DNA of 60,553 nt, filler included, from Malassezia furfur (GCA_052055015.1; 3 parts of 3 records of this genome joined end to end with filler, not necessarily neighbours in it), one strand, 5' to 3'; shown: positions 468 to 53,216, counted from the first letter of the whole stretch. Program-made: numbers and translations. Notes: a model not told the origin generated them from the letters alone.

Positions 468-2409
468 ATGTCGCTGACGGATCCCGAGAGCAACCCCCCA
501 GGGTTCAAGTATGTGGGACTGGTACGTTGCGCCGCTTACGCAGGGGCTCGCCGTGCTGAGTGGCGTGTTCATCGGCTCGTCGTTCGTGTTCAAAAAAAAG
601 GGGCTGCTGTCGGCGCAGCGCAAGTACGAGACGACCGCGGGCGAGTCGCATGCGTACCTCAAGAGCCCGATGTGGTGGACGGGGATGATCATCATGGTGC
701 TCGGTGAGGTGCTCAACTTTGTGGCGTACGCGTTCGCCGACGCCGTGCTCGTCACGCCGATGGGCGCGCTGTCGGTGGTCGTGTGCGCCATCCTCTCGTC
801 CATCTTCCTGAAAGAGTGCCTGACGCTCTTTGGCAAGGTCGGGTGTTTTTTGTGCATCGTCGGCTCGGTGATCATCGCCGTGAACGCGCCCGAGCAAAAG
901 ACGAGCGGCAACATCCGCGAGTACGAGAAGCTGTTCATCGCGCCGGGCTTCCTCGTCTGGCTCGGGATCTGCATCGTGACGGCGCTCGCACTCATCTTCT
1001 TCGTCGCACCGCGCTACGGCAAGAAGAGCATGCTTGTCTACATCACCGTGTGCTCCGTGATCGGCGGGCTGAGCGTGAGCGTCACGAGCGGGCTCGGCGC
1101 GGCCATCATCCTGTCGATCCGCGGGCGCAACCAGTTCACCTACTGGTTCACCTACTTCCTCCTCGCGTTCATCATCGTCACCCTCCTCGTCGAGATCAAC
1201 TACCTGAACAAGGCGCTCGAGCTGTTCAACACCGCCGCGGTCACGCCAACCTACTACGTGATGTTCACCGCCGCGACCATCATCACCTCCATCATCCTGT
1301 CGAAGGGCATGCGCGCGAGCGCCGCGACGATCGTCACCATCGTGTTTGGCTTCTTTGTGATCTGCTCGGGCATCGTCCTCCTGCAACTCAGCAAGATGGA
1401 CCCGCAGGAGCTCAAGGAGCAGCCGGGCGTCGACCGCAAGTCGTCCATGCTCGTGCGCATGACCCAACTCCCGCACGAGCCGGAAAAGAGCGAGGAGGTC
1501 ACGCACATCGAGGACCCGGGCATGGACACGGTGCGCGGCGGCATGGGCGTCATCGGCAGCATCCTGCGCGCCAACAGCACACGCCGTGTGCACTCGCGCC
1601 GCCGCTGCGACGACGAAGAGGACGGGATCGGCGGCGAGGTGCAGCGCTACCAGCTCTACGACCGGCCCGTGTCGTACACACCGACGGGTAGTGCGCCGAC
1701 CTCGCCCACGACGCACCCCTCGATCAAGTTCGCACCGGGCGCCGACGAGCCACACGGCCACCACGACGCGCACGCGGCATCGCACCGCGCCCACCACCAC
1801 CACGACCACCAGCACGACACGGCGCTGCCTCTCGCAGGTGCGATCGACATCGGCCACGCGCTCGCGCCCATCCTCGAGCACAAAAAGCGCTCGACGAGCG
1901 GAAGCCAGCGCTCGACAAGCACGCGCCGCCGTGCCTCGGAGAAGCGCCCAGGACACCATATCATCGGGAGCGACATCACCTTTGACGACGAGGACGACGT
2001 CGACCTCGGCGAGCAGACCGCCGCCGACACGCACGGCGTGGACGTCGACTTGCCGCCCATCTGGAAGGACGTGTCGGACGACGAGACGTACGGCATCGCG
2101 TCGCCCACCATGATCGTGGACGAGTACTGCCGCGAGCCGTTCACGCCCTCGTCGCCCACCTCGCAAGGTCGGCGCACGCCGAGCCTCGGCCTGCGCAGCT
2201 TCTCGCGCAGCCGGCGGCAGGACACGCAAAGCAACGACGACGGGCCACTGCGCGACGCGCTTGGCCTCTTCAAGCTGCGCAAGACCTCGCGCCGCGGCGG
2301 CGGCGGCGGTGCATCGTCGGGCCGTGAGTCGTCGTCGCCGCCGCCGGTGCCATTCCTGCGGCCGGAGCGGCGCACGACGGCACCCGAAGAAACCCATCTT
2401 TTGCCCTGA
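468..2409 (+). CDS. NIPA-family magnesium transporter (DMT superfamily) with long disordered C-tail
   Basis: Motifs [57 protein letters not shown]. Exon 1 468-521 ([18 protein letters not shown]), 22-nt intron 522-543 (gtacgt...cttacgcag), exon 2 544-2409. Confidence 0.92.
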
Positions 2410-2453
2410 TATGTAAATGAATCATTGCATAGTTCTTCTGTACTATCACACGC

Positions 2454-2835
2454 CTATGCGGGATGCGGCACGACGTCGCTGCGTGTTTCACTTTTGTAGC
2501 GCTGGGGGTAAGGGATAGGCGACGTACCAGCAGACGCACGATCTGCGCGCCCTGCGCGGTCGCATTCGTCAGGTGGCACACAAACAGCAGCATGTTGCGC
2601 GGCTGCACACGCAACGCGAAGCGCATAAACACACAGCTGTACAGGCACAGCGTCGGCGTCATCGTCGGCGAAATCAGCGCAGGGTCCTTCTTCAAGTCCG
2701 ACAGCGCGGCGATCGGCAGCGTCCAGTTCGCCACCGGGCCCCAGAAGTGGGTCGACTGCGTGAGCGTGGGCAACGCACCATGAAATAGTCGCGCGTCGCG
2801 GGCGACCGCAGCCAGGCCATAAACGACGACGCCAT
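2454..2835 (-). CDS. MPC1: Mitochondrial pyruvate carrier subunit 1
   Basis: [49 protein letters not shown]; introns 2756-2778 (23 nt) and 2502-2527 (26 nt) restore the frame. Confidence 0.92.
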
Positions 2836-3056
2836 GGTGGATGGGGTTTGGGCGCGGCCGACGGGCGCGCTCGCCGCATATTTCCCCGGGCCGACAGGTG
2901 GAGGTCGCTGCCCCGGCGTCAGGCAAGTGCTGCCTCTCCCCCACCCAGCGCCCCAGGTAGGTAGGAGTTGGAAAGAGAGATGACGGTGTAGTGGTACACG
3001 GGCTGTTTGCGAAATGGCTACAGCAGGGTCACTATATGGCAAAGGAGACAACGCCT

Positions 3057-4730
3057 CTAGGCGCGCTGCGAGCTCGGGCCCGCCTTGAGCACCTCGGGCT
3101 TGACGTCCTTCTCGTACTTGACAAAGGCCTCCGAGAACATGCCCGCGAGCTTCTTGAGCTCGGCCTCAAAGCCGGCCTTGTCGGGCCACGCCTTGGAGGG
3201 CTCGAGGATCTCGTCAGGGACGTTGTTCACCTGCTTGGGCACCTGCAGGTCAAAGACACCCGGCGCAAACGTCTCAAACTCGGCCTTGGCGAGGCTGCCG
3301 TCGTGGATCGCGTCGAGGATCGCACGCGTGTACTTGAGCGGGCAGCGGCGGCCGACACCAAACTTGCCGCCGGTCCAGCCGGTGTTGATGAGCCACGCGT
3401 TGCAGTTGACGCGCGACATGCGGTCGGCAAGCATGGTCGCGTAGCGCTGCGGCTTAAGCACAATGAAGGGCTGGCCGTAGCACGTCGAGAAGGTCGGCGA
3501 GGGCTCCACCACACCGTCCTCGGTACCGGGCGTCTTCGAGGTGTAGCCGGCAATGAAGTGGTACTGCGCCTGCTCCGAGGTGAGCTTCGACACGGGCGGC
3601 AGCACACCGTAGGCGTCGCACGTGAGCATGATCACGTTCGACGGCTGCGCATCCGAAATGCAGGGAATCTTGGCGTTGGGAATAAAGTTGATCGGGTAGG
3701 CGCAGCGCGTGTTCTCCGTGAGGCTCGCGTCGTCATAGTCGGGCACGCGGGTCACGGGGTCGTAGGTGACGTTCTCGAGGATCGAGCCAAAGCGGATCGC
3801 GTTGAAGATCTCGGGCTCCTTCTCCGCCGAGAGGCCAATGCACTTGGCGTAGCAGCCACCCTCAATGTTGAACACACCCGTGTCCGACCACACGTGCTCG
3901 TCGTCACCAATGAGCATACGGTTGGGGTCCGCCGACAGCGTCGTCTTGCCCGTGCCCGACAGACCAAAGAAGAGCGACACGTCCTTGTTCTTACCCTCGT
4001 TGCACGACGAGTGCAGCGAGAGCTGGCCGAACTTGACCGGCTGCAGGTAGTGCATCACCGAGAAAATACCCTTCTTCATCTCACCGGCGTACTCGGTACC
4101 GAGAATCACCATCTCGCGGCGCTTGAAGTTAATCTCAACCGAGGTCGACGAGGTCATGCCGGCCGTGAAACGGTTCGCGGGGAACTGGCCAGCGTTGTAG
4201 ATGGTAAAGTCGGGCTCGCCAAAGTTCTCCAGCTCTTCCTGCGTGGGGCGGATGAGCATGTTGTGCATGAACAGCGCGTGGTAGGCACGGGCGCAGATCA
4301 CGCGCACCTTGATGCGGTACTTGGGGTCCCAGCCCGCAAAGCCGTCAAACACGTAAATGTCATCGCGGGTGTTGAGGTAGTCAATCGCACGCTCACGGTT
4401 GATCTCGAAGGTGTGCTCGTCGAGCTTGATGTTCACAGGGCCCCACCAAATGTCGTCCTTGGAGGAATCCTCGTACACGATACGCTTGTCCTTGGGCGAA
4501 CGGCCCGTCTTCTTGCCCGAGAAGTTGATCAGGGCACCGTTCGAGGAGATCACCGCACCCTCCTTCGCAATCGCCTCCTCGTAGAGCTTGGAGACGGCGC
4601 TGTTGCGCTTAATCTGGATGCGGTCCATGTCGAAACCGGCCTCGGAGAACATGGTAATGTCCAGCGACAGAAGCGGGTTCGCCACCTGCTGGTTAGGGAG
4701 CTCGTCGTGGTGGTTGCCGGGGGAAGTCAT
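3057..4730 (-). CDS. PCK1: Phosphoenolpyruvate carboxykinase (ATP)
   Basis: [55 protein letters not shown] at 4730 with TATA-like TATATAAA about 40-50 bp upstream. Confidence 0.97.
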
Positions 4731-5109: not shown

Positions 5110-5558
5110 ATGCGCTTGCTGACGCACAATTTGCTGGCGTGCCACGCCAAAGGCTGTGGAAATTCGTCCAAGAACTTTCCCTTGCAGCTTCGCAATGTCC
5201 AGCTGGAAATGATTGAGGCAGAGTACAACGAAACCTTCCTCAAGGGGTTCTTGCCCAAGCTCCACTGGCCAGCGCTCGTCGGCGCCGCGCGCCAGCTCGG
5301 CCAGACGTCGCTCCCAGACCAGGAGCCGGATTTCACGCAGCAGGAGCCGAGCGACGAGCTGCTCCAAGCGCTGCACCACATCCTGCTCGAGGTACGTCGC
5401 TCGCCGCGCTCACACGCAGCTGCATATCGCTGAGGGCGAAATGGTTTGTCCCAACTGCGGGCATGTCTACACGATTCGCAGCGGGATTCCCAACATGGTA
5501 GGTTCCTCGGTACCGTGCTTACACCTAGCTGCTGGCCGAACACGAAATACCCAAGTAA
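5110..5558 (+). CDS. TRM112: Multifunctional methyltransferase activator subunit Trm112
   Basis: MRLLTHNLLAC..GC...FPL...LHHILLE|LHIAEGEMVCPNCGHVYTIRSGIPNM|LLAEHE; introns 5392-5419 (28 nt) and 5498-5528 (31 nt). Confidence 0.95.
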
Positions 5559-5693: not shown

Positions 5694-7373
5694 CTAAGAG
5701 AGGATGGGAAGGAACTGCGTAAGTTGTGTCAACATACATTGCCAACCACGTATGCAGGCAAATCGAACGGGTCGCGCTTGATCGTGAAGCACCACGTGCA
5801 GGGGATGCGTTTTCCAGAGGGGTTGAGCAGAACACAGGTGGTCATGACAGAGGGCGTCGTGTTCTCAAAGGCGTGACTGGCAAACTGCTCCCTGCGGTCA
5901 GTATACCCCCGGTGCGCACACGTACCAGTAATTCAGCACCGAGTCCTTGTCCATAAATTGGTACATGTACTTCCCCAGCAGATCTTCCTTGGTCCATTGG
6001 GTAAGCATGCAGAACTCTGCGCCCACCACGCAGATTTCGCATGTCCGGCGCCACACGACTGTCGGCGTGCCCGAGAACGAGATGAGCTTCTCAAACTCGA
6101 GCATGGTGCGCTGGAACGCGCGCTCCACAAACTTTTCGTCCTCCTCGCTGAGCGCCATTTGCAGCGCAATCAGCGACGGACGGAAAATGGCGAGCGCACG
6201 CACGATCCGCAGCACATCGCTCTTTTCGTACTTTTGCGTGACGTACTTGAGCAAGATATGGTAGCCCTCCGTGTAGCGAAACGGCTTTGTGTCGCCTCGA
6301 TAGACATCGGCCACGCGCTGCTTCCACAAGTTATCATTGTGGCTCTCATGTTCCACCGCGCCTGACGGCTCATCAGGGCGCTTGTGTGCGTTGGCTTTGT
6401 CCATCGAAGATGGTGTATCCGTCTCCCCGCCATGCGGGGCATTTAATGAGCCAGTTGTAGGGCCCATCAGACGCCGGGCGTTGTTCGACTCGTCCATGCT
6501 CTGTTCTGGGTACACGGACATATCGCCAAACTCGGAGGCAACGGGTTTTTGTAGCATGGGCTGCATGGGTGGGTGCTGTGCATTCCAGGAAAGATGGGGG
6601 GCAAGCGTATCGTCGTTTCGGAGCTCGTGGGGCAGAACATTGTTCACATGGGTATAACTGTCCATAAGCTCCATGGCAGGGACCGTTGGCACGTCAGGCG
6701 AGTCGCTGTTGATTAGCCCCGAATCAGCATCGTGCAGCATCGAGGACAGAATCGAGCATTCGAGCCACGTTGGATCAAATCCGGATCCAGCGCCCGAGTC
6801 CATCGTGACGGGTTTGGCGTCCATCCGTGTGAGTTGGCTGGTCGGCTTGAACAGGGCAGATGCTGTGGTCAGACGCGGCAACGTACGTGGTGCAAATGCG
6901 GGAGCCGGGTTCGCCATGGGCATCGTCTCCGGCACATTGTTCGCAAACATGTCCCCAGGATGCGACGCGTCGGAGGAAATAGAGTGGTGCATTTTGGAAG
7001 CTGTGTGAGCCGACGCGCACGCACGTATTTCGTCCTCTTCCAGAAGGTACTTGGCCTTTTTCCGGTACCCATCGACACACTGGTCGGCAAGACCCTTGCG
7101 GATGCAGCGCTGGCATGGCCGCGCTGTGTGTTAGTCGCGCGCGAAAAAGGCACACGTACAATCGTCGCAAGTCAGATGGGCTTTTTGGCAATGGTAGCAT
7201 GCACGACTGGCCTTTTTCCGACGAGACGTGCGTGGCGCACTCTTGTCCGTGTTGCCACGCTCCTGCTTGGGTTGCGGCGCATCTTGCATCTGAGACGGTG
7301 TCAATGTGTGGGTGTTGGCATGCGTCGACACCTTGTCGTCGGGCGGCGACGGCCCTGCATTGTCGACGTGCAT
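5694..7373 (-). CDS. ERT1: Zn(II)2Cys6 + PAS-domain transcription activator of gluconeogenesis (ERT1/AcuK family)
   Basis: RACYHCQKAHLTCDD|SRPCQRCIRKGL..C; PFRYTEGYH.L, FRPSLIA, SGTPTVVWRRT.EI, C-terminal IKRD.FDLP..VVGN|FLPILS; introns 7124-7159, 7001-7024 (in-frame, uncertain), 5892-5925, 5715-5737. Confidence 0.88.
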
Positions 7374-7912: not shown

Positions 7913-8115
7913 CTTGGTAGACTGTTGTCAGAACGCTGTGCATACGTACGGGTAAGATGAGAGACAACGATTTGGAAGCAAAGAGACGCTGGCAAGAGGA
8001 CCGCTCGTCGACCGCGTTGCACTAAGGAAAGAGCGGTGCGACCGCCCGAGCGAAACGTCACGTGACGTACCACGCTCCCACGCGACCGACGTGCACGGTT
8101 GAGAGGGCAGCCAGC

Positions 8116-8369: not shown

Positions 8370-8411
<42 letters not shown>

Positions 8412-10771
8412 CCCGAAGCGTAAGCGCAGCGGCCGTCAGAGCCAGTCCAAGTCGGACATCGAGGGCGGCGGCGAGCAGCGGTGGACGACCCTGATCCACA
8501 AGGGTCCGCGGTTTCCGGAGCCGTACAAGCCGCTGCCCGATGACGTGAAGCTCAAGTACGACGGCCGGCCGGTGAGTCTGCCGCCCGAGTCGGAGGAGGT
8601 CGCGATGTTTTACGCGGTGAAGCTCGAGACGCAGCACGCGCAGAACCCCATCTTTAACAAGAACTTTTTTGAGGACTTTTGCGTGAGTCTCAAAAAGTTC
8701 CCGCCGGTACGTGGCCTTGCACTGACCGCAGCGCGACGGCACCAAGATCAAAAAGTTTGACAAGCTCGACTTCCGCGACATGTACAACTACTGGAAGTCG
8801 CTCAAGGACGCCGAGGCCGAGCGGAAAAAGAGCATGGCGCCGTCGGCACGCAAGGCAGAGACGGCGGCGCGCAAGGCGGTCGAGAACGAGTACAAGACGT
8901 GCATTGTCGACGGCATCGAGCAAAAGGCAGGCAACGTCACCGTCGAGCCGCCCGGCCTGTTCTTGGGCCGCGGCGCCCATCCCAAGGCTGGGCGTGTCAA
9001 GGCACGCATCATGCCCGAGCAGATCACCATCAACCACAGCGCGGACCACCCTGCGCCTGCGCCGCCGGCCGGCCACAAGTGGGGCGAGGTGGTGGAGAAG
9101 AAGGACGTGACGTGGCTTGCGCTGTGGCGCGAGAACATCAACGGCGGCTTCAAATACGTCTTCCTGGACGCCTCGAGCAACTTCAAGACGGAGTCGGACC
9201 GCGAGAAGTTTGAAAAGGCGCGGCGCCTGGACGAGTGTGTGAAGCGCGTGCGGGCGGATGTGCTCAAGAACCTCACGTCGAAGAACCGGCTAGACCGCAT
9301 GGTCGCGACGATTGTGTGGCTCATCGACAACTTTTCGCTGCGTGCCGGCAACGAAAAGGGCGAGGACGAGGCCGAGACGTACGGTGTGTGTTCGCTGCGG
9401 TGTGGCCATGCGACGCTCATCATGCCGAACCAAATCAAGCTGTCCTTCCTCGGCAAGGACTCAATGAAGTTTGAGGAGACGCTGACGATCGGCAACAAGG
9501 ACGTGTTCAAGAACATGACCATGTTCCTCAAGACGGACGGCACCAAGGTGAACGGCGAATACGTCCGCAAGGGCCCCGACGACCCCATCTTTGCGGCGCC
9601 CAAGGCAAAGAGCAGCAAGATGACGCCGCTGTCGCCGGACGCGGTCAACCAGTTCCTGGGCAAGTACATGAAGGGGCTGAGTGCCAAAGTCTTCCGTACC
9701 TACAACGCCTCGGCGACCTTCCAGGGCCTCCTGGACCAGACGGAGCAGTGGCTCAACGCGCGGCCCACGCCGCAGGAGCGCGAGATTACGCCGGCGAATC
9801 TGCGCATCGCGTACAACGAGGCGAACCGGCAGGTGGCCATCCTGTGCAACCACCAAAAGACGGTGAACCACGTGCTGCTCAGCAAGGCGCTCGACCGCTC
9901 CAAGGATAAGATCTTTGCGCTGCGCTACCAAATCTTCAAGGAGCGCCAGAAGCTGCTCACGCACTACAAGGCCGCCGAACTCAAGAAGGAGTACCTGCCC
10001 AAGGACTACGACTTCGCCAAGAAGTGGAACCTGATCCTCGAGGAGCCCGACCTGGACAAGTCGCGCATCCAAGAGCACGAGGAGCAGTTTATCGCCGACA
10101 AGAAGGCGCGCATGATCACGGCGTTTGAACGGCAAGAGTCGGAGCGCAAGTACCAGGAAGAGCTGCGCAAGAACAACCAGATCAAGGACGAGGACACCGA
10201 CACCAAGCCGGTCAAGATCGCCACGCGCGAGCAGCTCGACGCCGAGTTGAAGAACCTCGACGAGCAGCTCAAGCTCCTCGCGCGCGAGCGCAAGGCAAAC
10301 AAGAGCGAGTCGGCCACGTGCAACGTGCCGTCCACCGCGCGGCGCATCCTGAGCAAGTACGAGGCGATCAAGAAGCAGGAGGCCGAGATGCTCAACAAGA
10401 ACAACACGAGCGACGTCTCGCTGGGGACGTCGAAGATCAACTACATCGACCCGCGTATCACGGTCGCATGGCTCAAAAAGTGGGACGACCGCCTGCGGAA
10501 AGAAGCGCCGCAGAAGAAGACCAAGGTCAAGACGGAGACCAAGGAGGAACAGGCTGCACAGACCGCCACGAGCGAGAAGATGGAGCTACACCTGCACGTC
10601 ATGAACATTGGCCAGTTCTTCCCGATGACCCTCCAAAAGAAGTTCCGGTGGGCGGCGCTCGATGACAACGGCAAGGACATCTCGCCCCAGTGGACGTTTG
10701 TCAAGGACGCCCAAAAGAAAATGCGCACGCTCGAAAGCGGCTGGCGCAAGAACGACGCGGCCGACGCCTAG
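8116..10771 (+). CDS. TOP1: DNA topoisomerase I (type IB)
   Basis: WTTL.H.GP.F, EPPGLFLGRG.HPK.G, LRAGNEK, FLGKDS, AKVFRTYNAS, ILCNHQ, catalytic SKINYIDPR; introns 8134-8160 (27 nt, AAG acceptor) and 8707-8731 (25 nt). Confidence 0.96.
8374..8409 (+). repeat. (GAC)12 trinucleotide repeat encoding poly-Asp in the TOP1 N-terminus
   Basis: Directly visible perfect repeat. Confidence 0.9.
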
Positions 10772-10823: not shown

Positions 10824-10928
10824 GGCAAGATGGCCGAGTGGTCTAAGGCGCAACGTTAAGGTTTCCTTAATATAAGAGCTTCTAGCTTCCGTTGTCTTCG
10901 GGCGTGGGTTCGAATCCCACTCTTGTCA
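10824..10928 (+). tRNA. tRNA-Leu(AAG) with a 27-nt intron (10862-10888)
   Basis: Acceptor GGCAAGA/TCTTGTC, A-box TGGCCGAGTGG, anticodon stem CAACG/CGTTG with AAG at 10858-10860, B-box GGTTCGAATCC, T6 Pol III terminator 10932-10937; the intron carries CCTTAA, complementary to the anticodon loop. Confidence 0.93.
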
Positions 10929-11055: not shown

Positions 11056-12401
11056 TTATGCCTCGTCCGCATTAACGACTACGCCGCCATCTTCGGGAGG
11101 CAGTTGCGTAGTTGCCTCTTGGTTGGTTTGGAAGAAGAGCTCCGCACTGTCGGCCATCTCGCCAAATTGGTCGACCGTCTCGGGCGTTTGCAGCCAGCTT
11201 GCCGAGAGTGGCACATAGCTCGACGTATGACCGCCGTGCGGCGACAGCATACGCTTGACAGCGCGATACACATACGGCACATGCGTCAAGTTGGCCGTCA
11301 GCTCCTCGGCGCTCTCTTCGTCGCTCGAGATCTCCATCGCCTGTTCCTTGCGTTTCTGACGCTTACGCCGCCCGGTCTCTTCCTGTGCAACCGACGAGTC
11401 CGAGCCACTCGCACTGTCGTCGCTGTCGTCCGCCGAGTCGCTGTCGCGCCGGCGACGGCGCAGGTGCTTGCGGTGCCTGCTGCTTCCCCGCTGGGTGCTG
11501 CTGTGCACCACCGACGCGTCCGAGTCGTCTGAGTCGGACGCATTGTCACGGCGCTCGGCCGCGCGGCTGCCGCGCCGCACCGTCTGCGTGGGCAAAACAG
11601 GAATCTTCTCAATTTCGTTGTCATAGATGAGCAGGTCGAGAAGGGCCACGACATGCTCCGGCTCCAGCTCGGTATCCGTGAGCTTGGCCGCTTTCAAGTA
11701 GCGGTGCACGCTCGAGGCCGTCGGCAGCTCTGCCGTGTGAGAAGAGGGGTATAGAGCCGAGGAGCGCCCATCCTTGGGCCACGATTTCGACTGGATGAAA
11801 CGCAAGCAGGCCATGGACAGCTCGTGGATGAATCCCGTGTCCAGCTCGTTGTCGGTGTACCAAGGCCCGCCAGACAGCTCGATCGAGGGAGTGAGGTCAT
11901 ACAGCATGTAGATTTTGCGCGTCGGAAACTTGACCGACTTGACCGCCTTGACCAGCTGCTTCTGTTCAAGCAGCTTGAGACAGCGATTCATGATGGTCTG
12001 GTGCAGGTTGGTGCGCGCCTTGATCATTTTGGTCCAGATGCCTGGGGTTCAGTCGAGAAACGTACCTTCGTTCTTGGCATCTTTGATGTGGTTGTAGATG
12101 ATGAGCTCGTTGGCATCCATTGTCCCGAGCCTGGGTCATTAGGGGGCGCAACGTACAAGCTCGCTTCGTCCTTGGACACGGCGACATACTGGATGCCGTT
12201 CGGGCCTTTTTGCGCGTTGAACAAGCTCTTTTTGAGCAGGCCATTGATGGCCAACAGCTGCTCTTCAATCGGTACGTCGCTGAGCCGCAACGCCAAGTCT
12301 TCACCTGTGAGCGTATGCTCTGGCGCAGCAAGCGCGGCGGCATGTGCGCGTTTTTCCAGCGGCGTGAGCCCACCGGCATCGGGCGTCTTTCGCGGCGGCA
12401 T
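11056..12401 (-). CDS. RPC34: RNA polymerase III subunit C34/RPC6
   Basis: E.IIYNHIKDA.NEG|IWTK.IKARTNLHQT..NRCLK.LE, KSVKFPTRKIYML..LTPS.E.SGGPWY; introns 12131-12156 (26 nt) and 12042-12065 (24 nt). Confidence 0.92.
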
Positions 12402-12517: not shown

Positions 12518-15213
12518 ATGGTGGGGGGTGCGGCGACGCAGTTGGACCCGGTGCGCGGACCGACGCCCGAGACAACTGAAGTGGACCTCTCGTTCTTCGC
12601 AGAGAAAACGTCGCAGCCTTCGCACACGATTACATTCAATGATACCTCGGTCCTGGCCGTCGCTGTCGACCAGGAGCGCGGCCTCTTGTTTGCCGGCACG
12701 CAATCGGGCACGATTTTCGTGTGGAATCTGGTCACGCAGCAACCGTATGCCCAGCTCGTGGGACACACACGCAGCGTACTTGCGCTGACGTTTGCGCAGA
12801 ACGAGGGATGGCTGTTCAGTGCGTCGTCCGATAGCACCGTTCGTCTATGGGACGTGCGCCATCTGCGGCCCATTGCGCTCATTTACCCTGCCTCGGACAA
12901 CACCGGTGACATCCTGGCGATGGCCTGGTGCCCATCTGTGCATACGCTCTTTTTGGGATGCCAAGATACCTCGATTCAATGGATCTCGATCACACCCGAG
13001 AAGCTGCAAGAGCCTCTGCACAACGTGCCCAACTCGCGTCCGCACAAGTTCTTCGACTCCATGTCGCGCGCGATGGAGGGCATGTCGGACGCACTGCCAC
13101 TGGCCGTCCGCACCGCCGAACAGCTTATCCGACGCACCGCCGTGCACCGAATGGACCCGGCAACGAACCAGGTCGACTTGGTGGACGATGCGCCTACGGT
13201 CCATGCACCCAAGCAAATGTCGGTACTGGCTGTGAGCAAAACGTGCGCCATCCCGTCGGCACATTTTGGCTACGTGTACAGCCTCGCGGTGGTCTCCAAC
13301 CACGACGGGCCCCTGCTGGCCAGCGGGGCAGGCGACGAGACCATCCGGCTGTGGTCGCCGTGTGAAGGCGGGATTGAGCCGCGGTGCACGCTGCAGCTGC
13401 CTTCGCCCTCGGGCGACGCGATCCTCACGCTTGCGGCCTGGGAAAATACGCTGCTGGTCGGGAAACAGGGCGGTGCGATCGACGTATGGGACATTGAGAG
13501 CCGCACGTTGATTCGCTCGCTGCGGGGCCATACGGATGATGTGCTGTGTCTCCAGCTCGTAGAGCCCGGCAAAGAGCGCATGTTCTTCTCCGGGAGTGCC
13601 GACGGGCACGTCTGCCGTTGGGACGGCTACTTCCGGTGCACCGCACGCTGGCTTGCGCACGACGACATCGTGCAGACCTGTGCCGTGTTCCAAGGGCGCC
13701 GGCAGGGCGAGGGGCAGTTTGCGTGGCTCGCGAGCGACGCTGAGCTCATCACGGGCTCGTCGGACGCGAGCGTGCGCCTGTGGCCCTTTACGCCGCCGGC
13801 AGCGGCACCGACGTCGCCGCAGCCGCCCGTGCAGCAGCCCACGCTGGTACAGCGCCTCGCGCGCTTCATCCGCTACAAGAGTGTCTCGCAGGGCCCAACG
13901 GGTCTGGCGGACGAGGAGAGCATGGAGGACTCCCGGCAGGCGGCGCACTTCCTCAAGACCACGCTCATGGAGCTCGGCGCGAGCGATGTGCAGCTGGTGT
14001 CTGGCGGCGCGCGCGCCAATCCTATGGTGTTGGCGACGTTCCGTGCCGTGCGTCCAGCGCGGCGGCGGTGCCTGTTTTACGGGCACTACGACTGCATCCC
14101 TGTGAGCGGCGGCTGGGAGAGCCACCCGTGGACGCTGACGGGGCGCAACGGATACCTCTACGGGCGCGGTGTGAGCGACAACAAGGGCCCGGTGCTGGCA
14201 GTCGCCTGTGCGGCCAGCGACCTGCTGCAATCGAAGCAGCTGGACGTCGACATAGTGATGCTGGTCGAGGGCGAGCAAGAGACCGGCTCCAAAGGCTTTG
14301 AGAGCTGCCTGCGTGTCTACAAGCACCTGATTGGCCCCATTGTACGTGTGCGAGGACGCTGACCCCAGGACACGATTCTCGTGTGCAACTCGTACTGGCT
14401 CGGCGAGCAGCGCCCGTGCCTGACCGTCGGCCTGCGTGGCGTCATCCAGGCGACGGTGCGCATCTCGGGCCGCCACGCCGACCGGCACTCGGGTGTGGAC
14501 GGCGGCGCAGACCGCGAGCCAATGATGGATGTAGGTACTACGACTGACGCCAGATGATCAAGCTGCTTGCCACGCTTACGGATCCCGCCGGCCGCGTGAC
14601 ACTTCCCGGCTTCTACGACGATGTGCGCCCGGTGAGCCCAGAGGAGCGCATGTACTACGAAAGTATCGTGCACGAGGCCCACGGCGCTTCGTCCACGGCC
14701 GAGAACCTCGTGGCCCTCTGGCGCATGCCCTCGTTCACCGTGCACCGCGTGTCGACCAGCGGCCCAGGGCATGCGACCGTAATCCCCAACTCGGTCGAGG
14801 CGTCGCTGAGCATCCGCATCGTGCCCGACCAGGACCTGGCGGGCATCGAAGCATTGCTGCGCGCCGAGATCGAGCGCAACTTTGCCGCACTGCAGTCTAC
14901 CAACCGCATCGAAATGCACGTCGTACACCGCGCCGACTGGTGGCAGCGCTCCGTCGGACTGCCCTACTGGGATGCGCTCGCGGACGCCGTCGAGGCCGAG
15001 TGGGGCGAAAAGCCCATCGATATCCGCGAAGGCGGCTCCATTCCCGGGATTGCCATCCTCGAAAAGGAACTGGGCGCACAGGCCGTGCACCTTCCCATGG
15101 GCCAGGCCTCCGACCATGCGCACCTCCCCAACGAGCGCATCCGCCTCGTGAACCTGAGTCGCGGGCAGTCGGTCGTACGTCGCTTCTTCCAGGCGCTTGG
15201 CAACATGCCCTAG
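12518..15213 (+). CDS. DUG2: WD40 + M20 peptidase fusion, glutathione degradosome subunit Dug2-like
   Basis: N-terminal WD40 repeats; FYGHYD, GRGVSDNKGP, EGEQE, HSGVDGG, IREGGSIP, AHLPNER; introns 14342-14368 (27 nt) and 14531-14553 (23 nt). Confidence 0.88.
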
Positions 15214-16993: not shown

Positions 16994-17264
16994 GTCGTTC
17001 ACCCCGTGCGCTGTGTCGACCTACCGCGGTCGGATCCAATGGCGTAGCACGTGGTGGGTTGATTTACATCCCAGGTCGCTTACGCGTAATTCATTTACGG
17101 CCCCACGCGGCGCGTGTGGGGGCCTGAGGTCGCTCGTTCTTACCATCGAGCGGTGCAGTCACGCGCGATGCAGACAAACAGAGTCTTTTGGGTTTATTAG
17201 CTGCTTATAGAATGAATTATGGTTACTAGACAAACAGTGGGTCAAACGAGCGAGCCCAGGTCCA

Positions 17265-20300: not shown

Positions 20301-20400
20301 NNNNNNNNNNNNNNNNNNNNNNNNNNNNNNNNNNNNNNNNNNNNTTAATTAATTAANNNNNNNNNNNNNNNNNNNNNNNNNNNNNNNNNNNNNNNNNNNN
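20301..20400. other. Assembly gap with artificial TTAATTAATTAA spacer (stops in all six frames)
   Basis: N44-TTAATTAATTAA-N44; the same construct recurs at 40530-40629. Confidence 0.97.
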
Positions 20401-40529: not shown

Positions 40530-40629
40530 NNNNNNNNNNNNNNNNNNNNNNNNNNNNNNNNNNNNNNNNNNNNTTAATTAATTAANNNNNNNNNNNNNNN
40601 NNNNNNNNNNNNNNNNNNNNNNNNNNNNN
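40530..40629. other. Assembly gap with artificial TTAATTAATTAA spacer
   Basis: N run with the central spacer, same as 20301-20400. Confidence 0.97.
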
Positions 40630-44915: not shown

Positions 44916-45732
44916 ATGGCGGAATCGAGCAAGGCGATGTGAGTAATGCGTGTGTGCATGGTATACTAACCGGCAGCAACCCCATGAAGGTGTGTAACGG
45001 ATATGCTGTGGATTCGCGCGCGGCGGCGGGCACCACTCACAGCGCGAGCAGGACGGCACAGGATGATTGCGTTGGCTTGTTGCTCACGTCCGTTTGGTGT
45101 CGCGCCATGTGCACAGGGACGACACGACGGTGTGCATAGCGGCGCAACATCCCTTGTGTCCTTGTCAGCGTCGATTGGGGCCTTCGTGTGCCTGCGCGAA
45201 ATCCAGCTGGCAAACGTGGAACAGACGACTAACCATACAGGAGCTTAAGGTTGACAAGCTCGTCATCAACATCTCGGTGGGTGAGTCGGGTGACCGTCTC
45301 ACTCGTGCCACCAAGGTGCTTGAGCAGCTCACCGGTCAGACCCCGGTGACCAGCAAGGCCCGCTACACGCTGCGTGGCTTCGGTATCCGCCGTAACGAGA
45401 AGATCGCGTGCCACGTCACCATCCGCGGTGCCAAGGCCGAGGAGATCCTCGAGCGTGGCCTGAAGGTCAAGGAGTACGAGCTGCGCAAGCGCAACTTCTC
45501 CGAGACGGGCAACTTCGGTTTCGGTATCACCGAGCACATTGACCTTGGTCTCAAGTACGACCCCGGTATCGGTATCTTCGGTATGGACTTCTACGTCTGC
45601 ATGACCCGCCCTGGTGCGCGTGTCGCTCGCCGCAAGAGCCGCACCTCGCGCGTGGGCTACTCGCACCGCGTCAAGAAGGAGGAGACGGCTGCCTGGTACA
45701 AGCAGCGGTTCGACGGTATCATCCTCAAGTAA
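44916..45732 (+). CDS. RPL11: 60S ribosomal protein L11 (uL5)
   Basis: [42 protein letters not shown]; introns 44939-44976 (38 nt) and 44990-45240 (251 nt); 13-nt micro-exon 44977-44989. Confidence 0.96.
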
Positions 45733-46023
45733 ATTTGTGTACGCTTGTTGTACACATCATGATGCTATTTCATACCTTGCGGTTCGTTGCCATAGCGTGC
45801 GCCTCCGTACACCTGGCTTCATGCCATGAAAATTGACAGCGCCCCTGTTTCGCTACCTGGCCGACTCGGTGTGGAAGGCGTTTTGTTCTCGGCCGAGATA
45901 CGTGGAGGCAGCCTCCACGGTGCCTGCGGGGCGTGGGCGCGCCTGGGCGGTCACACGTGGCGGCGGTGCGCGGTGGGCGTCCTTTCCTGACCGGTGTGCA
46001 TTGACGTCGACCGACACGCGCAG

Positions 46024-48300
46024 ATGATCCGTGGGCTCGAAGGATTCCTCCAGGACGCTCAGCTGCTCCAAGATGCCCAGCTCTCGTTGCTGAAGAATAC
46101 GCGTCTTGGCATCGACCTGTCGTATTACCTGCGCCAGCTGCTCTCGTCTGCCGAAACGGCGGAGCCGTTGGTCGCGGCGATCGGCGGGCAGCCGCTGGCC
46201 GTCATGGCCAAGATCGAGAGTGATCTGCGGGTCTTGGAACAGAACCGCATCAAGCCTGTATTTGTGCTGAACGGCTTGTCGCCTGCCAAGCGGACGCGCC
46301 CGTTTAGCTACGAGGACCGGCGCCCTGGCCTCCGCAAGCGTGCGTGGGAGGCATACGAGGCCGGGAATGTGGACCTGGCCGTCCAGCACCTGCGCGCGAG
46401 CAACAGTATCCACTTCCCTGATTTGTACAGGAATGTTCTGCGTATGCTCCGCCACAAGCACGTCGATTTCCTCGTGGCTCCCTATCTGGCGACCGGGCAG
46501 CTGGTGCTGTTGGAGACGCACAGCAAGCAATACGTGCACGCAATGTACGGCCCCTCAGAGCTGCTTGCGTTCGACAACGTGGACAAGGTGATTGTGCACA
46601 TGGACTTTGCGCAGGGCAAGTTCCAGTATGTGAGCAAACAGGCGATTTTGCGGGAGCTGCAGTGCAGCGAGAGCGAATTTCTGGATGCGGCGCTGCTGGT
46701 GGGCATGGAGTATTGCTCGACGTTCCCTGCACTGCAGGACGAGTCGACGGGCCTGCTGCAAACCTCGGGTCCGCCCGGCCTGCGAGCGGTGAGCCAGCTG
46801 GTGCGGCAGTACCGCAGCGGCTTTGCGCTGTGCAGCCAGTTTGCGCAGCACCCCATGGTGGTCAAGTCGGCGTATTTGGACCAGTTCTGCCACGCGCGCA
46901 CCATGATCAAATACTCGCTCGTGCTCGCACCCGTGTCGGCGACGGTGGTGCCGCTGCCGCTGGCGCTTGGCAAGGGCGACAAGAACGCGGCCGATGTCCC
47001 GTCGGACTTGCAGGAGATCTTTTCTTTCCGGCTGCCCGACGAGGTCTTTTTGTGTCTGTCGCGCGGGCTGACAAGCGCGAATGTGCTGGGCAGTCTGCTG
47101 AGTGGCTACGTGATTGAGCCTGCGCCGCTCGACAATGGCGAGACGAGTGAATACCAACGATTTGTGCGCGAATACCTCACCGAGTCGCCACAGAGCCCGC
47201 GGTGCATCGCGATTGCGCTCGCGTGTGCGGCGCTGCATCCCTTCTGGCGTGCGCGCAAAGTCTCGGCTGTGTTCTACTTCCAGCCGCACGCCGACTGCCC
47301 CGTGCCGCACGAGGCGCCTGCGACGCAGCAGCTGCTGCAGCGCATGGAGCTGTGGTACGTCCCTGCCGCGTTCTTGGACGAGGAGCTCAAGCGGCAAAAC
47401 TCGGCGACGATTGATCTGCCCCTGTGCCTCAACACCACCGCCGATGCGGCGCGCGCCAAGCGCACGATCGGCACGCGCGATGCGAGCGCGCGCCTCACGA
47501 AAAAGGACGAGCTGGTGGCCAACTCGCTGTGGCGTCTGCTTGAGCTGCGTGGCTTCTTGAACGAGCAGCACACGCACACAGCGTATGGACGCGCGCTGCA
47601 CGGTGCACTGCAAAAAGTCAAGGTGAACGACCGCGTGCAGGAGCCGCTGTACCTCGCGCTCGAGCTGGTGCGCGCCGGGGTTTTGCACGGCGACGCGTAC
47701 AGCCACACGTCCTACAGCGGTGGCCCATCGTTTGGCTCCGACGACGAGATGCAGCACATGCGGCTGGTGATGCGTGCGCTGAGTCTTGTGCCGATCACCT
47801 TCAAGCCGCAGGCCTGGGACGCGCCGCTCTCGCGCGAGCTGCTCGTGTTCAACTCGTTCGTCAAGTCGCTCTCGCGCTCGCTGCGCTCGCTTGTCGAGAT
47901 GATCACGCTGACGATGCTGCTCAAGAGCGAGAACCGCGTGCCGCGTGACGACTACCTCGACCTGAGCCTCTCGCTGCTCTTCCAGTCGGACACCAACACG
48001 GGCCTGGGCATCGTTGTCAAGTGCTACCTCGATGCGCTCTATACGCTGCACGGCGGCACAGTGACGGCAAGCGAGGCGGCGCAGGCCAACACCCAGGAGG
48101 AAAAGAGCTCCGTGGTCGAGATGCTGGTCGAGACCTTTGAAAACGTCCGCGATGTCGGCGTGGAGCTGCGCCGCGGCTTCCGCTTCTGGACGGCGCTCGT
48201 GAGTGCCGTTGAGATTCTCGCCGAAGAGCACACCGTCTCGGCGTCCGTCGCGCAACAGTTCCGTGCCGCCGACGCCTGGTTGCAGCCGATGATGCTCTAG
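46024..48300 (+). CDS. MKT1: Post-transcriptional regulator Mkt1 (XPG/PIN-like)
   Basis: LGID.SYYL, EPL..A.GG.P, PVFVLNGL, FLVAPY.A.GQL, RLPDE.F..LSRGL, LSRELL.FNSFV; a possible upstream micro-intron at 45994-46023 leaves the start uncertain. Confidence 0.82.
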   Translation: MIRGLEGFLQDAQLLQDAQLSLLKNTRLGIDLSYYLRQLLSSAETAEPLVAAIGGQPLAVMAKIESDLRVLEQNRIKPVFVLNGLSPAKRTRPFSYEDRRPGLRKRAWEAYEAGNVDLAVQHLRASNSIHFPDLYRNVLRMLRHKHVDFLVAPYLATGQLVLLETHSKQYVHAMYGPSELLAFDNVDKVIVHMDFAQGKFQYVSKQAILRELQCSESEFLDAALLVGMEYCSTFPALQDESTGLLQTSGPPGLRAVSQLVRQYRSGFALCSQFAQHPMVVKSAYLDQFCHARTMIKYSLVLAPVSATVVPLPLALGKGDKNAADVPSDLQEIFSFRLPDEVFLCLSRGLTSANVLGSLLSGYVIEPAPLDNGETSEYQRFVREYLTESPQSPRCIAIALACAALHPFWRARKVSAVFYFQPHADCPVPHEAPATQQLLQRMELWYVPAAFLDEELKRQNSATIDLPLCLNTTADAARAKRTIGTRDASARLTKKDELVANSLWRLLELRGFLNEQHTHTAYGRALHGALQKVKVNDRVQEPLYLALELVRAGVLHGDAYSHTSYSGGPSFGSDDEMQHMRLVMRALSLVPITFKPQAWDAPLSRELLVFNSFVKSLSRSLRSLVEMITLTMLLKSENRVPRDDYLDLSLSLLFQSDTNTGLGIVVKCYLDALYTLHGGTVTASEAAQANTQEEKSSVVEMLVETFENVRDVGVELRRGFRFWTALVSAVEILAEEHTVSASVAQQFRAADAWLQPMML

Positions 48301-48334
48301 CGTGTACAATAAGTAGGTCCGATGTAGCACCGTT

Positions 48335-50097
48335 CTACGGGGTATCGTTCGCGGAGCACGTCCCGGTACCGCCGGCATCAGAGCGCCGTGACCCGGAAGA
48401 GCGCGACTCGAGGTCCTCGTCCAAGTCGTCGTCCTCCGACCAGTCCTGTGCGCCGTCGTCCGCGTCCAGGCGCAGCCGCTCGAGCCGCGGCGCATACATC
48501 ACCGCTGACGGTAGCACACCGGGGGTCGGCGGCAACGACGCCGATGCCAGCGCGTCGGGCATCGCTGCTCCGGCCCCGGGCGCCGCTGCCCCAGCCCGCG
48601 CATCGTCCGTCCCAGGCGCGAGCCAGAGTGAGCCAGAGGACGCGGCACGCCCCACGGGCTGCGTCTCGCTCTGGGAGCGCGCAGGCATCTTGGGCCGCGA
48701 CGGGAGCGTCGTGGCGCGCCCCAGCGCGCCACCGCCGCGCAGGAGGCGCACGAGCGACTGCTTCGACGAGGTGCTGCTCGGCGACGTCGCGCCGCTCTCG
48801 TCGCTCGGTGTGCTTGGCGCACGCCGCGGGCCACTGAGTGTCTCGGTGAGACGACGGCGCAGCTGCTTCATCTGCCTGCGCAGCCGCGGCAGGCCCGTCA
48901 GTGCGCCATGCACCTCTTCACGCGAGACCTGAACGGACGGCATCTGCGTGGGGTCCGTCTGCTGCAGCCAGTGGTCCGCATTGTCCAGGTTGGCGACAAT
49001 CCATGGGTGGTGGCGCACCTCTTCGAGCGTGATGCGTTCGTTGGGGTTTTTCTCTAGCAGGCGGTCGAGCAGGTCACGCACCAGCCGCGCCTCGCGCGAC
49101 ATGGGCAGCGGCGGCGCGTCCTGCTCGGGCACCGCGTGCGGACCAAACCGCGGAGCGCGCGGGCCGACGGCAATCGCATCGGAACCCATCGTGGCAGGCA
49201 GTGCATAATCCTCAAAGGGGATCACGTTGAACAACGCATACTCGGTGTCGGCCGTGAACGGAGGATGCCCAAACAAGAGACAGTACAGCGTCACGCCGAG
49301 TGCCCACACATCGATGGCCTTGTTGATGGGCCAGCCCTTTTTTCCCTGGCCACACAGGCACAGTTCGGGCGCAAAGAACGCGGGACTGCCTGCCGTCTTG
49401 GCAAGCGCCGCCTCGTCGTTTTCGGTGGAGACGGAGCTGAGATGCGACACGCCAAAGTCACTGATTTTCACATGGTACTCCTCATCCCACAGCAGGTTTG
49501 CGGGCTTGATATCGCGGTGCACGATGCCCTGGTGGTGCAGGAATTCGAGGCCCAGCACGACGTCGCGGATGATGCGCCGCGTCTCCTCGACGGTGAGCGT
49601 CGGACGGCCCGCGGCGTCTTTCCAGTGTACCTCGCCGCGCGCCATGTACTCGAGAATGAGAAAGATCTTCCGGCTTTGCGGGTCATCGATCACCTCTTTC
49701 AGCTGCACCACGTTGGGGTGCTGGCACTTTTTGAGGATCGCAATTTCGCGCAGCACCTTCTCGTCCGTGACCGGCGCGAGCGGTGTGAGCGGGTCGGCGC
49801 TCCGCTCACCGAGCTTGCGTCGCATCTCACGCTGCACGATCTTTACGGCGACGCGCTCGCCCGTCTCGGCGTGCCGCGCAAGGCGCACACGACCATGCAC
49901 GCCGTGCCCAATTTCGTCCTCGCTGCGGTCAGTGCGTCAGGTGCAACCTACATGATGTACTCGTTCACCATACGACGCCCACTCGGCGCATGGGTCTGCA
50001 GCTGTAGTCGATTCGTCTCGAGCACGGGTGCAGGCGTCGTGCCGCCCGACGGGGCCGGTGCCGTGCGCGCCGGCCGCGCCCCCCCACGATCCTCCAT
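48335..50097 (-). CDS. CaMKK-family Ser/Thr kinase (Sak1/Ssp1-like, Snf1-activating)
   Basis: VNEYI|IEDEIGHGVHGRV, REIAILKKC.HPNVV.L.EVIDDP, HRDIKPANLL, DFGVS, TAGSPAFFAPE; 29-nt intron 49923-49951. Confidence 0.88.
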
Positions 50098-52299: not shown

Positions 52300-52402
52300 G
52301 CGCGCGGTACTCTCGTCCATAGCAATTCGGGCCCCTTTGGGACAGACCTACTCCCTCTGCGCTACGAGTCGGCGGAGCCGGGGTGGCACGCGCGCCACCC
52401 TT

Positions 52403-53216
52403 CTAAGGAAGCACGGTGGCGACGATGCGGCGCGAGTGCTTCGCACGGCGGAACTCGCACAGGTACTGCGGTCAGCCATAGGCAAGATACGCACCACGCC
52501 CTGCCACGTCCCGAGGTTCAGGCGGCCGTCCGTGATCGGAATGGTGAGCGACGGGCCGATGATCGACGCCTTAGTGTGCGACGCCGAATCGTCGGGGCCC
52601 TCGTCCGTGTGCCGCCACGGGAGCGACTCGGGGACGACGTGGTCAAGCGCCTGCGTAAGTGGGCACCACGTACCATGTCCATGTCGGTGCGCACGTCGCG
52701 GTCAAAGTTTTCGTTGAGCGACAGCGCCGCGCTCGTGTGCTGGATGAACAGCGTGAGGATTCCAGCCTTGACGGGGCGCAGGATGTCGCGCAGCTCGCTC
52801 TCGACCTCGCTCTGCACGAGATGGCAGCCCTTCGTGCGTGCGTTGAGGGTAAACGTTTTTTGCGCCGGCATGGTGGTGGGGGGAGAAACGCCCCCACCTG
52901 CGCGCGGGCCACGCGGCATGGCAGGAACGAGGCCCCGAAGTGTCGACAGCGGGACAAACACGTACGCAAGGCCGAGCAGCACGATAAACAGCGTGAGCAC
53001 GTTGGGATTGCGGATCTTGCGCGCGGTGCCGAAAAAGAGCGGGTGCCGCTCGCCGTACCGCCGGCGGCGTGCGTCGGCATCGGCACGCCGCTTGCGCCGC
53101 ACGGCGTCCGCCTCGGCGTAGGGCGAGTTGGCGTACAGCGTGGCACTCGCCTCGAGCGGGGACTCGTCGGCGGCGTGCGGCGCACGATCGGGCGGCGCAG
53201 GCGGGTAGGCGGACAT
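52403..53216 (-). CDS. UPF0047/YjbQ-family protein with a possible N-terminal TM extension
   Basis: GCHLV, FIQHTSAALSLNEN.D.DVR.DM, H.DEGPDD..SH.K, LNLGTWQG.|YLCEFR; introns 52651-52673 (23 nt) and 52466-52494 (29 nt); alternative ATG at 52871. Confidence 0.85.

Follow-up and report, generated by a model that had tools for sequence, protein, structure and literature searches.

The window analysed here, a 60.5-kb stretch of Malassezia furfur DNA (60,553 nucleotides, filler included), contains 42 GT-AG introns between positions 522 and 52673, in about 34 genes, and 37 of these introns are only 21-29 nt long. They are very probably ordinary U2-type spliceosomal introns of furfur-clade Malassezia that have shrunk to about the smallest workable size. 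The elements have a stereotyped anatomy and lie on the sense strand of their genes, their removal restores conserved proteins, and in orthologues they are absent or differ in length. All evidence from the window is sequence, homology and literature.

The window has a G+C content of about 64% and carries eukaryotic genes densely packed on both strands, among which Pfam identifies a NIPA-type transporter, PEPCK, TOP1, VPS26, ULA1, TFIIS, DED1, HIS4 and others. The best match of the largest ULA1 exon (exon 3) is a Malassezia furfur protein with 91% identity; an M. obtusa protein matches at 81%. These matches place the organism in the furfur clade of Malassezia. Gene models were rebuilt independently with a codon-usage score trained on 13 long open reading frames (ORFs), followed by a dynamic-programming exon chainer using two splice-signal classes, strict and relaxed, and by hand curation. 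The raw output of the chainer comprised 29 models and 44 introns. Curation dropped 10 joins and supplied the introns at 12042-12065 and 27071-27091, intron 2 of the ribosomal protein L11 gene and the three introns of the SPC12 gene; the 5' site of L11 intron 1 was corrected.

The curated lengths are 21 nt (two introns), 22 nt (seven), 23 nt (nine), 24 nt (four), 25 nt (five), 26 nt (three), 27 nt (one), 28 nt (four), 29 nt (two), and 31, 36, 38, 64 and 251 nt (one each), giving a median of 24 nt, a mode of 23 nt and a mean of 31.4 nt in this sample of one 60-kb window. Mode and median are thus both below 30 nt, as in the ultra-short class of introns. Two further sites with a perfect motif, 6863-6886 (-) and 26068-26089 (-), are unconfirmed and uncounted; with them the total is 44. 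A sequence-only reading of the window had listed 44 introns, 38 of them of 21-29 nt, and our histogram agrees with it to within one or two entries. The four examples that it located, at 522-543, 26676-26696, 29910-29931 and 34138-34159, are exact. Lengths divisible by three (3n) account for 8 of the 42 introns; this apparent depletion is suggestive but confounded, since 3n introns without a stop codon are harder to detect, and we make no claim from it.

Splice signals, reading frames and homologues

GT and AG termini are present in 42 of 42 introns. In a consensus drawn from the 40 introns no longer than 40 nt, the 5' splice site has G at +1 and T at +2 in every case, A (33) or G (7) at +3, C (30), T (5), G (4) or A (1) at +4, G in all 40 at +5, and T (35) or C (5) at +6. 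GTRYGY is found in 35 of these 40. At the 3' end, position -3 is C in 38 and T in 2, and an A occurs at -6 in 24 introns and at -7 in 14. The 41 introns shorter than 70 nt include 39 with a YTNAY motif, whose A lies 5-7 nt from the 3' end in 37 (5 nt in 20, 6 nt in 12 and 7 nt in 5). Motif and AG are separated by 1-3 nt, most commonly 2 nt, which leaves no room for a pyrimidine tract. The result is an anchored branch/3' splice site, with a short fixed distance from motif to AG and no pyrimidine tract. The presumed branch A comes at intron position 16 at the earliest, and at positions 16-18 in the introns of 21-23 nt; some 5-10 nt intervene between 5' splice site and branch motif. The G+C content of the introns is 60%. 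The 64-nt and 251-nt introns bear the same signals as the micro-introns, so the machinery is not confined to the latter. These counts bear out the layout described in the sequence-only reading (GTRYGY, a short spacer, then a YTNAC-like motif adjoining YAG, with no pyrimidine tract) and its remark that the branch A often lies 6 nt from the 3' end. U12-type introns would have an RTATCCTT 5' site and a TCCTTAAC branch site; RTATCCTT occurs in none of the introns, in which positions 3-6 read RYGY.

The preference for C at +4 (GTACGT; 30 of 40 short introns) is unusual. At eight loci a second GTRYGY site, often GTACGTGTGC, overlaps the first from 2-7 nt inside it (5892-5925, 7001-7024, 7124-7159, 7922-7949, 14342-14368, 16746-16770, 28961-28986 and 30637-30658). 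Use of the inner site would shift the frame, and because of these second GT sites the exact 5' site rests on the frame argument.

The signal exceeds what is expected by chance. A strict motif, defined as GTRYGY...YTNAY N0-3 YAG with a total length of at most 32 nt, has 40 matches at 32 distinct loci in the window, and all 32 loci lie on the gene sense strand. In 200 dinucleotide-preserving shuffles the mean number of matches was 5.35 (standard deviation 2.45, maximum 13), and the reversed sequence gave 4. In a second test the coding frame was scored separately on the 75-nt flanks of each intron. The frame shift across a segment, which would be zero if the segments were not introns, equals intron length modulo 3 exactly at 29 of the 34 introns of non-3n length; each of the five exceptions adjoins a terminal exon or mini-exon shorter than the flank. 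Among the 3n introns, those at 12042-12065, 14342-14368 and 37430-37453 contain an in-frame stop.

Homology shows for 27 of the 42 introns that removal restores a continuous conserved protein, in 12 cases through precise absence of the intron from an orthologue, in 6 through length variants, in 3 through gapless outgroup alignments and in 6 through abutting Pfam coordinates. A metagenome scan with the ULA1 alignment returned 53 loci, two of which are syntenic Malassezia-like contigs, L001 (60% identity) and L002 (55%). These contigs cover 18 introns of the window, of which 12 are precisely absent and 6 are length variants. Both contigs have ULA1 as a continuous ORF of 532 codons, free of stops and of all five introns found in the window. 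The loci L001:9485-11080 and L002:9488-11095 correspond to 26133-27841 in the window. Also absent in L001 are both introns of the NGL-type exonuclease gene, TFIIS introns 2 and 3, and all three introns of the DnaJ gene. Junction alignments with L001 and L002 are gapless, the one exception being a deletion of 3 residues in L001 that lies three residues upstream of ULA1 junction 3. Where L001 retains introns, at the same codon positions and with the same signals, they measure 30, 42, 27, 32, 24 and 25 nt against 28, 64, 22, 22, 22 and 23 nt in the window, and L002 has 22-nt introns at two of the DnaJ positions. When lengths differ at a fixed position by amounts not divisible by three, the segments behave as introns do, and not as inserted coding sequence or errors of assembly would. 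A 26-nt intron in the L001 DnaJ gene has no counterpart in the window.

Comparison with more distant proteins agrees. The spliced ULA1, UBX and NGL models are gapless at 10 junctions against non-Malassezia orthologues: the Ustilago bromivora protein P0021 at five of five ULA1 junctions, the UBX model, with three junctions, in 14-15 of 17 orthologues from non-Malassezia Ustilaginomycotina, ascomycetes and insects, and the NGL model at its second junction in 12 of 14 orthologues. Exons were also submitted to Pfam one by one, as contiguous references to the window. Most exons of 20-65 residues gave no match in these scans. Pairs of flanking exons matched one model at abutting coordinates for Topoisom_I_N (74/76), Vps26 (68/71), DnaJ-X (133/136), TFIIS_M (92/93), UPF0047 (46/49), Trm112p (18/19), SPC12 (21/23 and 49/51) and, on either side of a 21-residue exon, Rpc34 (76/101).

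Mechanism, history and rival readings

The pairing scheme that we apply to these introns is that of the general spliceosome. U1 and then U6 would pair with the 5' site GUACGU or a near variant, and U2 would pair with the YUNAY branch site, whose presumed A is 15-22 nt away from the intron's 5' end and 5-7 nt away from its 3' end. The acceptor would be the first YAG after the branch, chosen by proximity and with no pyrimidine tract, and the introns would be recognised as whole units (intron definition). The splicing chemistry, the identity of the branch A and the protein factors involved are predictions from the signals described above.

Most of the introns seem to occupy old positions, where relatives either retain a micro-intron of another length or have lost the intron precisely. 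A Ceraceosorus protein has long insertions exactly at two UBX junctions, and proteins of M. obtusa and M. cuniculi have insertions at ULA1 junctions; in the light of these insertions the micro-introns look like shrunken ancestral introns and not recent gains. The history thus appears to be one of shrinkage from ancestral introns with precise losses in some lineages, a direction that is suggested by these comparisons.

A stronger proposal, which develops the suggestion in the sequence-only reading of a spliceosome adapted to micro-introns with altered U1/U2 spacing and probably less reliance on U2AF65, is that the Malassezia spliceosome has been specifically remodelled, with altered U1-U2 bridging and with U2AF65/Mud2 lost or dispensable, and that this remodelling, and not mere tolerance by an ordinary machinery, is what permits micro-introns. 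We regard it as possible but doubtful. The geometry invites it, since in introns of 21-23 nt no more than 15-17 nt separate the 5' end from the presumed branch A, and the gap from branch motif to AG is only 1-3 nt. In Stentor, whose introns are 15-16 nt long, differing parts of branching factors have been inferred from sequence and SR proteins went undetected (PMC9505925; this and the other papers below are cited from parts of their text). However, in myxozoans, where the median intron measures 22 bp, the branch-interacting region of U2 is conserved and U2AF1 and U2AF2 are retained (PMC13644364), the pyrimidine tract is said to be lacking in most fungi anyway (PMC2483917), and the 64-nt and 251-nt introns with the same signals coexist with the micro-introns in the window. 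Pfam and Rfam searches found no splicing-factor or small nuclear RNA (snRNA) genes in the window.

It is improbable that some of the 3n elements (21, 24, 27 and 36 nt) lengthen the protein by 7-12 residues, either as short stretches of inserted coding sequence or through alternative retention, instead of being obligatory introns. The absence of an in-frame stop from five of the eight would allow this, public annotations of other Malassezia species do translate such segments, and for 7001-7024, as for the uncounted 6863-6886, homology is no guide, the protein regions concerned being of low complexity. Yet 26676-26696, 27071-27091, 37430-37453 and 39918-39941 have the full set of splice signals and the extra residues that they would encode are missing in intron-less or non-Malassezia orthologues, and the in-frame stops in the three 3n introns named above also speak against translation. 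The last reading, that the frame breaks are assembly indels or pseudogene lesions, or that the true introns are longer and use other sites, could draw on the eight overlapping GT sites 2-7 nt away and on gene-finder joins of 82-186 nt, but it has a negligible probability, as indels would not bear GTRYGY...YTNAY...YAG on the sense strand at 32 loci or reappear in L001 and L002 at identical codon positions but with different lengths, and the longer joins all fused neighbouring genes or cut conserved motifs and were rejected.

Several points weigh against the interpretation of all 42 segments as spliceosomal introns. For fifteen of the 42 introns the case is made by a restored frame, in-frame stops, the motif and partial Pfam coordinates only. 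An internal in-frame stop is missing from five of the eight 3n introns, and one of these five, at 7001-7024, which was placed by the strict motif, could be kept and translated unnoticed. The branch nucleotide is assigned by motif alone, and 12042-12065 and 30436-30460 have no YTNAY match. The gene finder made the 10 joins that we rejected, missed 12042-12065 and 27071-27091, which were found by hand, began L11 intron 1 at 44950 and not at 44939, and omitted L11 intron 2 and the whole intron-bearing SPC12 gene. These false and missed joins show that motif and coding score alone are fallible.

Introns gene by gene

The NIPA-type Mg transporter gene (468-2409) has a 22-nt intron at 522-543 (+) with the strict motif and agreement in the frame test, and in its downstream exon the Mg_trans_NIPA match begins with residue 2 at model position 9. 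The mitochondrial pyruvate carrier gene has a 23-nt intron at 2756-2778 (-), also with the strict motif and frame agreement, after which the MPC match begins with residue 1 of the downstream exon at model position 14. Its other intron, of 26 nt at 2502-2527 (-), precedes a last exon of 16 residues, which is too short for the frame test to be informative; the upstream exon stops at position 88 of 110 in the MPC model, and the remaining evidence is the motif. In TRM112, the 28-nt intron at 5392-5419 (+) has frame agreement and divides the Trm112p model into positions 2-18 upstream and 19-40 of 40 downstream. The second, a 31-nt intron at 5498-5528 (+) with a GTAGGT 5' site, was read by hand; it precedes a last exon of 10 residues and has a branch-like CTTAC with its A 7 nt from the 3' end.

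The gene for a Zn2Cys6/PAS transcription factor is interrupted four times on the minus strand. Removal of the 36-nt intron at 7124-7159 (-) unites the two halves of the zinc cluster, with Zn_clus model positions 17-37 downstream. The 24-nt intron at 7001-7024 (-), a 3n intron without an in-frame stop, was placed by the strict motif only, and its retention keeps the frame open. Within PAS_13, the 28-nt intron at 5892-5919 (-) has an internal stop and frame agreement, with model positions 1-50 upstream and the rest downstream; neither of the overlapping GT sites, at 5921 and 5925, agrees with the frame. The 23-nt intron at 5715-5737 (-) precedes a last exon of 7 residues and has the strict motif and an in-frame stop 6 nt in. 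A probable further intron in this gene, the uncounted 24-nt 3n segment at 6863-6886 (-), has a perfect motif and leaves the frame open whether spliced or unspliced. Two candidates concern 5' untranslated regions. The presumed 28-nt intron at 7922-7949 (-), 10 nt upstream of an ATG at 7912, has the strict motif, on the sense strand only, and the uncounted 22-nt segment at 26068-26089 (-), a possible intron, has a perfect motif upstream of a large URB1-like ORF.

In the gene for DNA topoisomerase I, the 25-nt intron at 8707-8731 (+) has frame agreement and separates Topoisom_I_N positions 1-74 from 76-213. The RNA polymerase III subunit gene Rpc34 has a 26-nt intron at 12131-12156 (-) and a 24-nt intron at 12042-12065 (-). 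Exon 1 matches model positions 8-76 and exon 3 positions 101-285, and the gap between them is filled arithmetically by the 21 residues of exon 2 plus two split codons. The second of these introns, a 3n intron with an internal stop, was found by hand; its branch is CTGAAC-like and not YTNAY, and the strict motif missed it. A WD40/M20 peptidase gene has a 27-nt 3n intron with an internal stop at 14342-14368 (+) and a 23-nt intron with a GTAGGT 5' site at 14531-14553 (+). Peptidase_M20 matches flank the two introns of the gene; across the second, which has frame agreement, they cover positions 1-78 upstream and 112-205 downstream, in different frames. The 25-nt intron of VPS26, at 16746-16770 (-), lies between Vps26 model positions 1-68 and 71-274.

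ULA1, which encodes the regulatory subunit of the NEDD8 E1 enzyme, has introns of 23 nt at 26457-26479 (+), 21 nt at 26676-26696 (+), 21 nt at 27071-27091 (+), 22 nt at 27423-27444 (+) and 23 nt at 27659-27681 (+). All five are absent from L001 and L002, and their junctions align gaplessly with P0021; at intron 3 the junction is gapless in L002 as well. Introns 2 and 3 have 3n lengths. Intron 2 is free of in-frame stops, and the M. obtusa protein has a 7-residue insertion there. The DnaJ/DnaJ-X gene has three introns. Intron 1 (26 nt, 28961-28986, -) is absent from L001 and corresponds to a 22-nt intron in L002, and the DnaJ match begins with residue 1 of its downstream exon at model position 3. 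Intron 2 (23 nt, 28652-28674, -) is absent from both contigs, with a gapless junction. Intron 3 (25 nt, 28025-28049, -), between DnaJ-X positions 1-133 and 136-193, is absent from L001 and has a 22-nt orthologue in L002.

The signal peptidase gene SPC12 (29373-29726) has a hand-read 28-nt intron at 29403-29430 (+), for which L001 has a 30-nt intron at the same position. Its 64-nt intron 2 at 29491-29554 (+) separates SPC12 model positions 2-21 and 23-49 and has a 42-nt orthologue in L001, and its 22-nt intron 3 at 29642-29663 (+) separates positions 23-49 and 51-69 and has a 27-nt orthologue there. In TFIIS, intron 1 (22 nt, 29910-29931, +) has frame agreement and counterparts of 32 nt in L001 and 27 nt in L002 at the same position. 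Intron 2 (25 nt, 30436-30460, +), with an ATGAC branch that is not YTNAY, lies between TFIIS_M positions 2-92 and 93-114 and is absent from L001. Intron 3 (22 nt, 30637-30658, +) lies within the zinc ribbon, where the Zn_ribbon_TFIIS match 1-24 stops at the end of the exon; it is absent from L001, with a gapless junction. The TRM61/GCD14 gene has introns of 22 nt at 34138-34159 (+) and 23 nt at 34271-34293 (+), the second with frame agreement, and L001 has introns of 24 and 25 nt at the respective positions.

The NGL-type exonuclease gene has a 24-nt 3n intron with an internal stop at 37430-37453 (+), aligned with 14 orthologues, and a 25-nt intron at 37578-37602 (+), gapless in 12 of the 14; L001 lacks both, the first being absent from an uninterrupted ORF. 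In the UBA/UBX gene, the junction of the 23-nt intron 1 at 40093-40115 (-) was aligned with 17 orthologues, including non-Malassezia fungi and insects. The 24-nt 3n intron 2 at 39918-39941 (-) is gapless in 14 of the 17, the Ceraceosorus protein having a long insertion exactly there, and the 22-nt intron 3 at 39764-39785 (-), with a GTAGGC 5' site, is gapless in 15.

In the gene for ribosomal protein L11, the hand-read 38-nt intron 1 lies at 44939-44976 (+); the alternative GT at 44950 leaves an in-frame stop. A 13-nt micro-exon separates it from the sole long intron of the set, of 251 nt at 44990-45240 (+), after which the Ribosomal_L5 match begins with residue 2 of the downstream exon at model position 6. 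An Rfam search of this long intron gave no match at E values up to 1. A protein kinase gene has a 29-nt intron with a GTAGGT 5' site at 49923-49951 (-), after an exon 1 of six codons. It has frame agreement and a stop at the start of the intron, and the Pkinase match begins with residue 2 of the downstream exon at model position 5. The UPF0047 (YjbQ-like) gene has a 23-nt intron at 52651-52673 (-), between model positions 4-46 and 49-99, and a 29-nt intron at 52466-52494 (-), which has frame agreement and follows an exon that stops at model position 99 of 117.

Among the joins rejected in curation, 2908-3092 fuses the PEPCK and pyruvate carrier genes, 17201-17351 and 16977-17162 fuse DUR3 and VPS26, and 53254-53335 fuses HIS4 and the UPF0047 gene. 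The 117-nt join 7124-7240 was replaced by the real 36-nt intron at 7124-7159. The joins 45071-45240, 45729-45839 and 45973-46137 mis-join the L11/MKT1 region, and 57851-57891 was without support. The join 35923-35976 cuts the S-adenosylmethionine (SAM)-binding motif of an FtsJ-type gene, which is one continuous ORF in the window and in L001. This FtsJ/TRM7-type methyltransferase gene (35421-36230, -) has an in-frame insertion of about 40 residues before the SAM-binding motif. The insertion is common to L001, in a longer version, and is therefore coding sequence and not an intron.

Other features of the window include a tRNA of 105 nt at 10824-10928 (+), recognised by Rfam and missed by ARAGORN, the length of which implies an insert of about 30 nt. 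The tRNA-Ala that ARAGORN called at 33925-34003 (-) lies within a large coding ORF, in antisense orientation; Rfam does not support this call, which is therefore probably false. Four runs of N, taken as masked sequence, in two pairs with members 12 bases apart (20301-20344 and 20357-20400, 40530-40573 and 40586-40629), lie near the 3' ends of the URB1-like and DED1 genes.

Known systems, annotation and significance

Very short introns in Malassezia are already known, and in print with RNA-seq support. The curated annotation of M. sympodialis ATCC 42132 contains 5350 introns in 4493 genes with a mean length of 30 bp, of which 5271 (99%) are supported by RNA-seq, compared with 3462 introns of mean length 65 bp in an earlier annotation by homology only (PMC5389616). 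In M. restricta KCTC 27527 the average is 37.2 bp and the median 30 bp (PMC9241646), and that species was annotated with a minimum intron length of 20, then 15 (PMC6473144). A review credits the genus with "very short introns" (PMC7426719). The density in the window (42 introns in about 34 genes) and the mean of 31.4 nt match these congeners, which identifies the phenomenon as a known trait of the genus; the window adds a GC-richer species, from the furfur clade. The sequence-only reading was right about the organism, the introns and their anatomy and overstated the novelty of the introns, as the published annotations of congeners give the same statistics. In the parts cited here, the M. sympodialis and M. 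restricta genome papers report summary intron statistics only. Full-text literature searches gave no description of splice-signal architecture, an anchored branch site or a length mode in Malassezia, although the intron-size plot in Fig. S8 of PMC5389616 is a picture and was unreadable; searches combining Malassezia with branch point, lariat, U2AF and ultrashort or tiny introns yielded no Malassezia paper beyond the genome papers.

The 3' end architecture has parallels elsewhere. A branch point anchored next to the AG, with no pyrimidine tract, has been described in Yarrowia lipolytica, at 2 nt, and in Trichomonas vaginalis and Giardia lamblia, at 4 nt (Irimia and Roy 2008, PMC2483917). According to the cited part of that work, these species share with the window the missing tract and a strong branch motif, theirs of CTRAY type, at a short fixed distance from the AG, and the 2 nt of Yarrowia is also the commonest layout in the Malassezia window. 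Unlike Malassezia, they are intron-poor and their introns are much longer, with medians of 204 nt in Yarrowia and 104 nt in Trichomonas, and their motif is a strict CTAAC whereas in the Malassezia motif any of C, G, T and A may stand in the middle. In length, the introns resemble those of the ciliates Paramecium and Stentor, the chlorarachniophyte nucleomorph, Microsporidia, dicyemids and myxozoans, where the modal length is in the low twenties or less and the signals fill most of the intron; the myxozoan median is 22 bp (PMC13644364) and Stentor introns are 15-16 bp (PMC9505925). Other ultra-short introns are described as mostly AT-rich, with weak or A-run branch signals (PMC13644364), in contrast to the 60% G+C and explicit YTNAY of Malassezia. 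Malassezia further differs from the other ultra-short-intron lineages in being a culturable, transformable yeast. A 2026 list of lineages with introns below 30 bp does not mention Malassezia (PMC13644364), and a 2021 survey of fungal introns, as far as it is cited here, treats M. sympodialis as intron-poor and gives Cryptococcus (63 bp) as an example of short introns (PMC8476143). Malassezia genomicists thus know a trait that comparative work on introns has largely omitted.

With standard gene finders, or with spliced aligners at default settings, such introns are missed or read through. A warning of mis-annotation in the sequence-only reading is borne out by public Malassezia proteins that are altered exactly at micro-intron junctions. 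The M. obtusa ULA1 protein has insertions of 11, 7 and 8 residues exactly at junctions 1-3, the M. furfur ULA1 protein ends shortly after junction 5, and in those of M. psittaci and M. yamatoensis residues are missing downstream of that junction. In the NGL protein of M. yamatoensis each of the two junctions has an insertion of 7 residues, and one database protein has insertions at two UBX junctions. The affected records (P0003, P0001, P0005, P0006, P0071 and P0026) thus contain insertions of 7-11 residues, deletions or truncations, which are the product of intron read-through or mis-calling by annotation pipelines. Mis-called junctions of this kind corrupt the protein sets used in comparative genomics.

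For near-minimal introns whose branch signals are explicit, the genus offers a convenient case that is seldom cited. Beyond what is in print, the present analysis contributes an explicit signal architecture, an unusual C at +4, a lower bound of about 15 nt from the 5' splice site to the branch, and the precise differences in intron presence and absence between Malassezia lineages. We tentatively suggest, with more doubt than conviction, that Malassezia is an overlooked, culturable and tractable ultra-short-intron lineage in which a spacing of 15-17 nt would force a compacted or stepwise assembly of U1 and U2, possibly with changed branch-site factors or changes in the snRNA regions that face the +4 C, and in which precise intron loss would have proceeded unequally between lineages. 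If this is true, the minimal geometry of intron recognition would become directly testable by spacer editing in a yeast.

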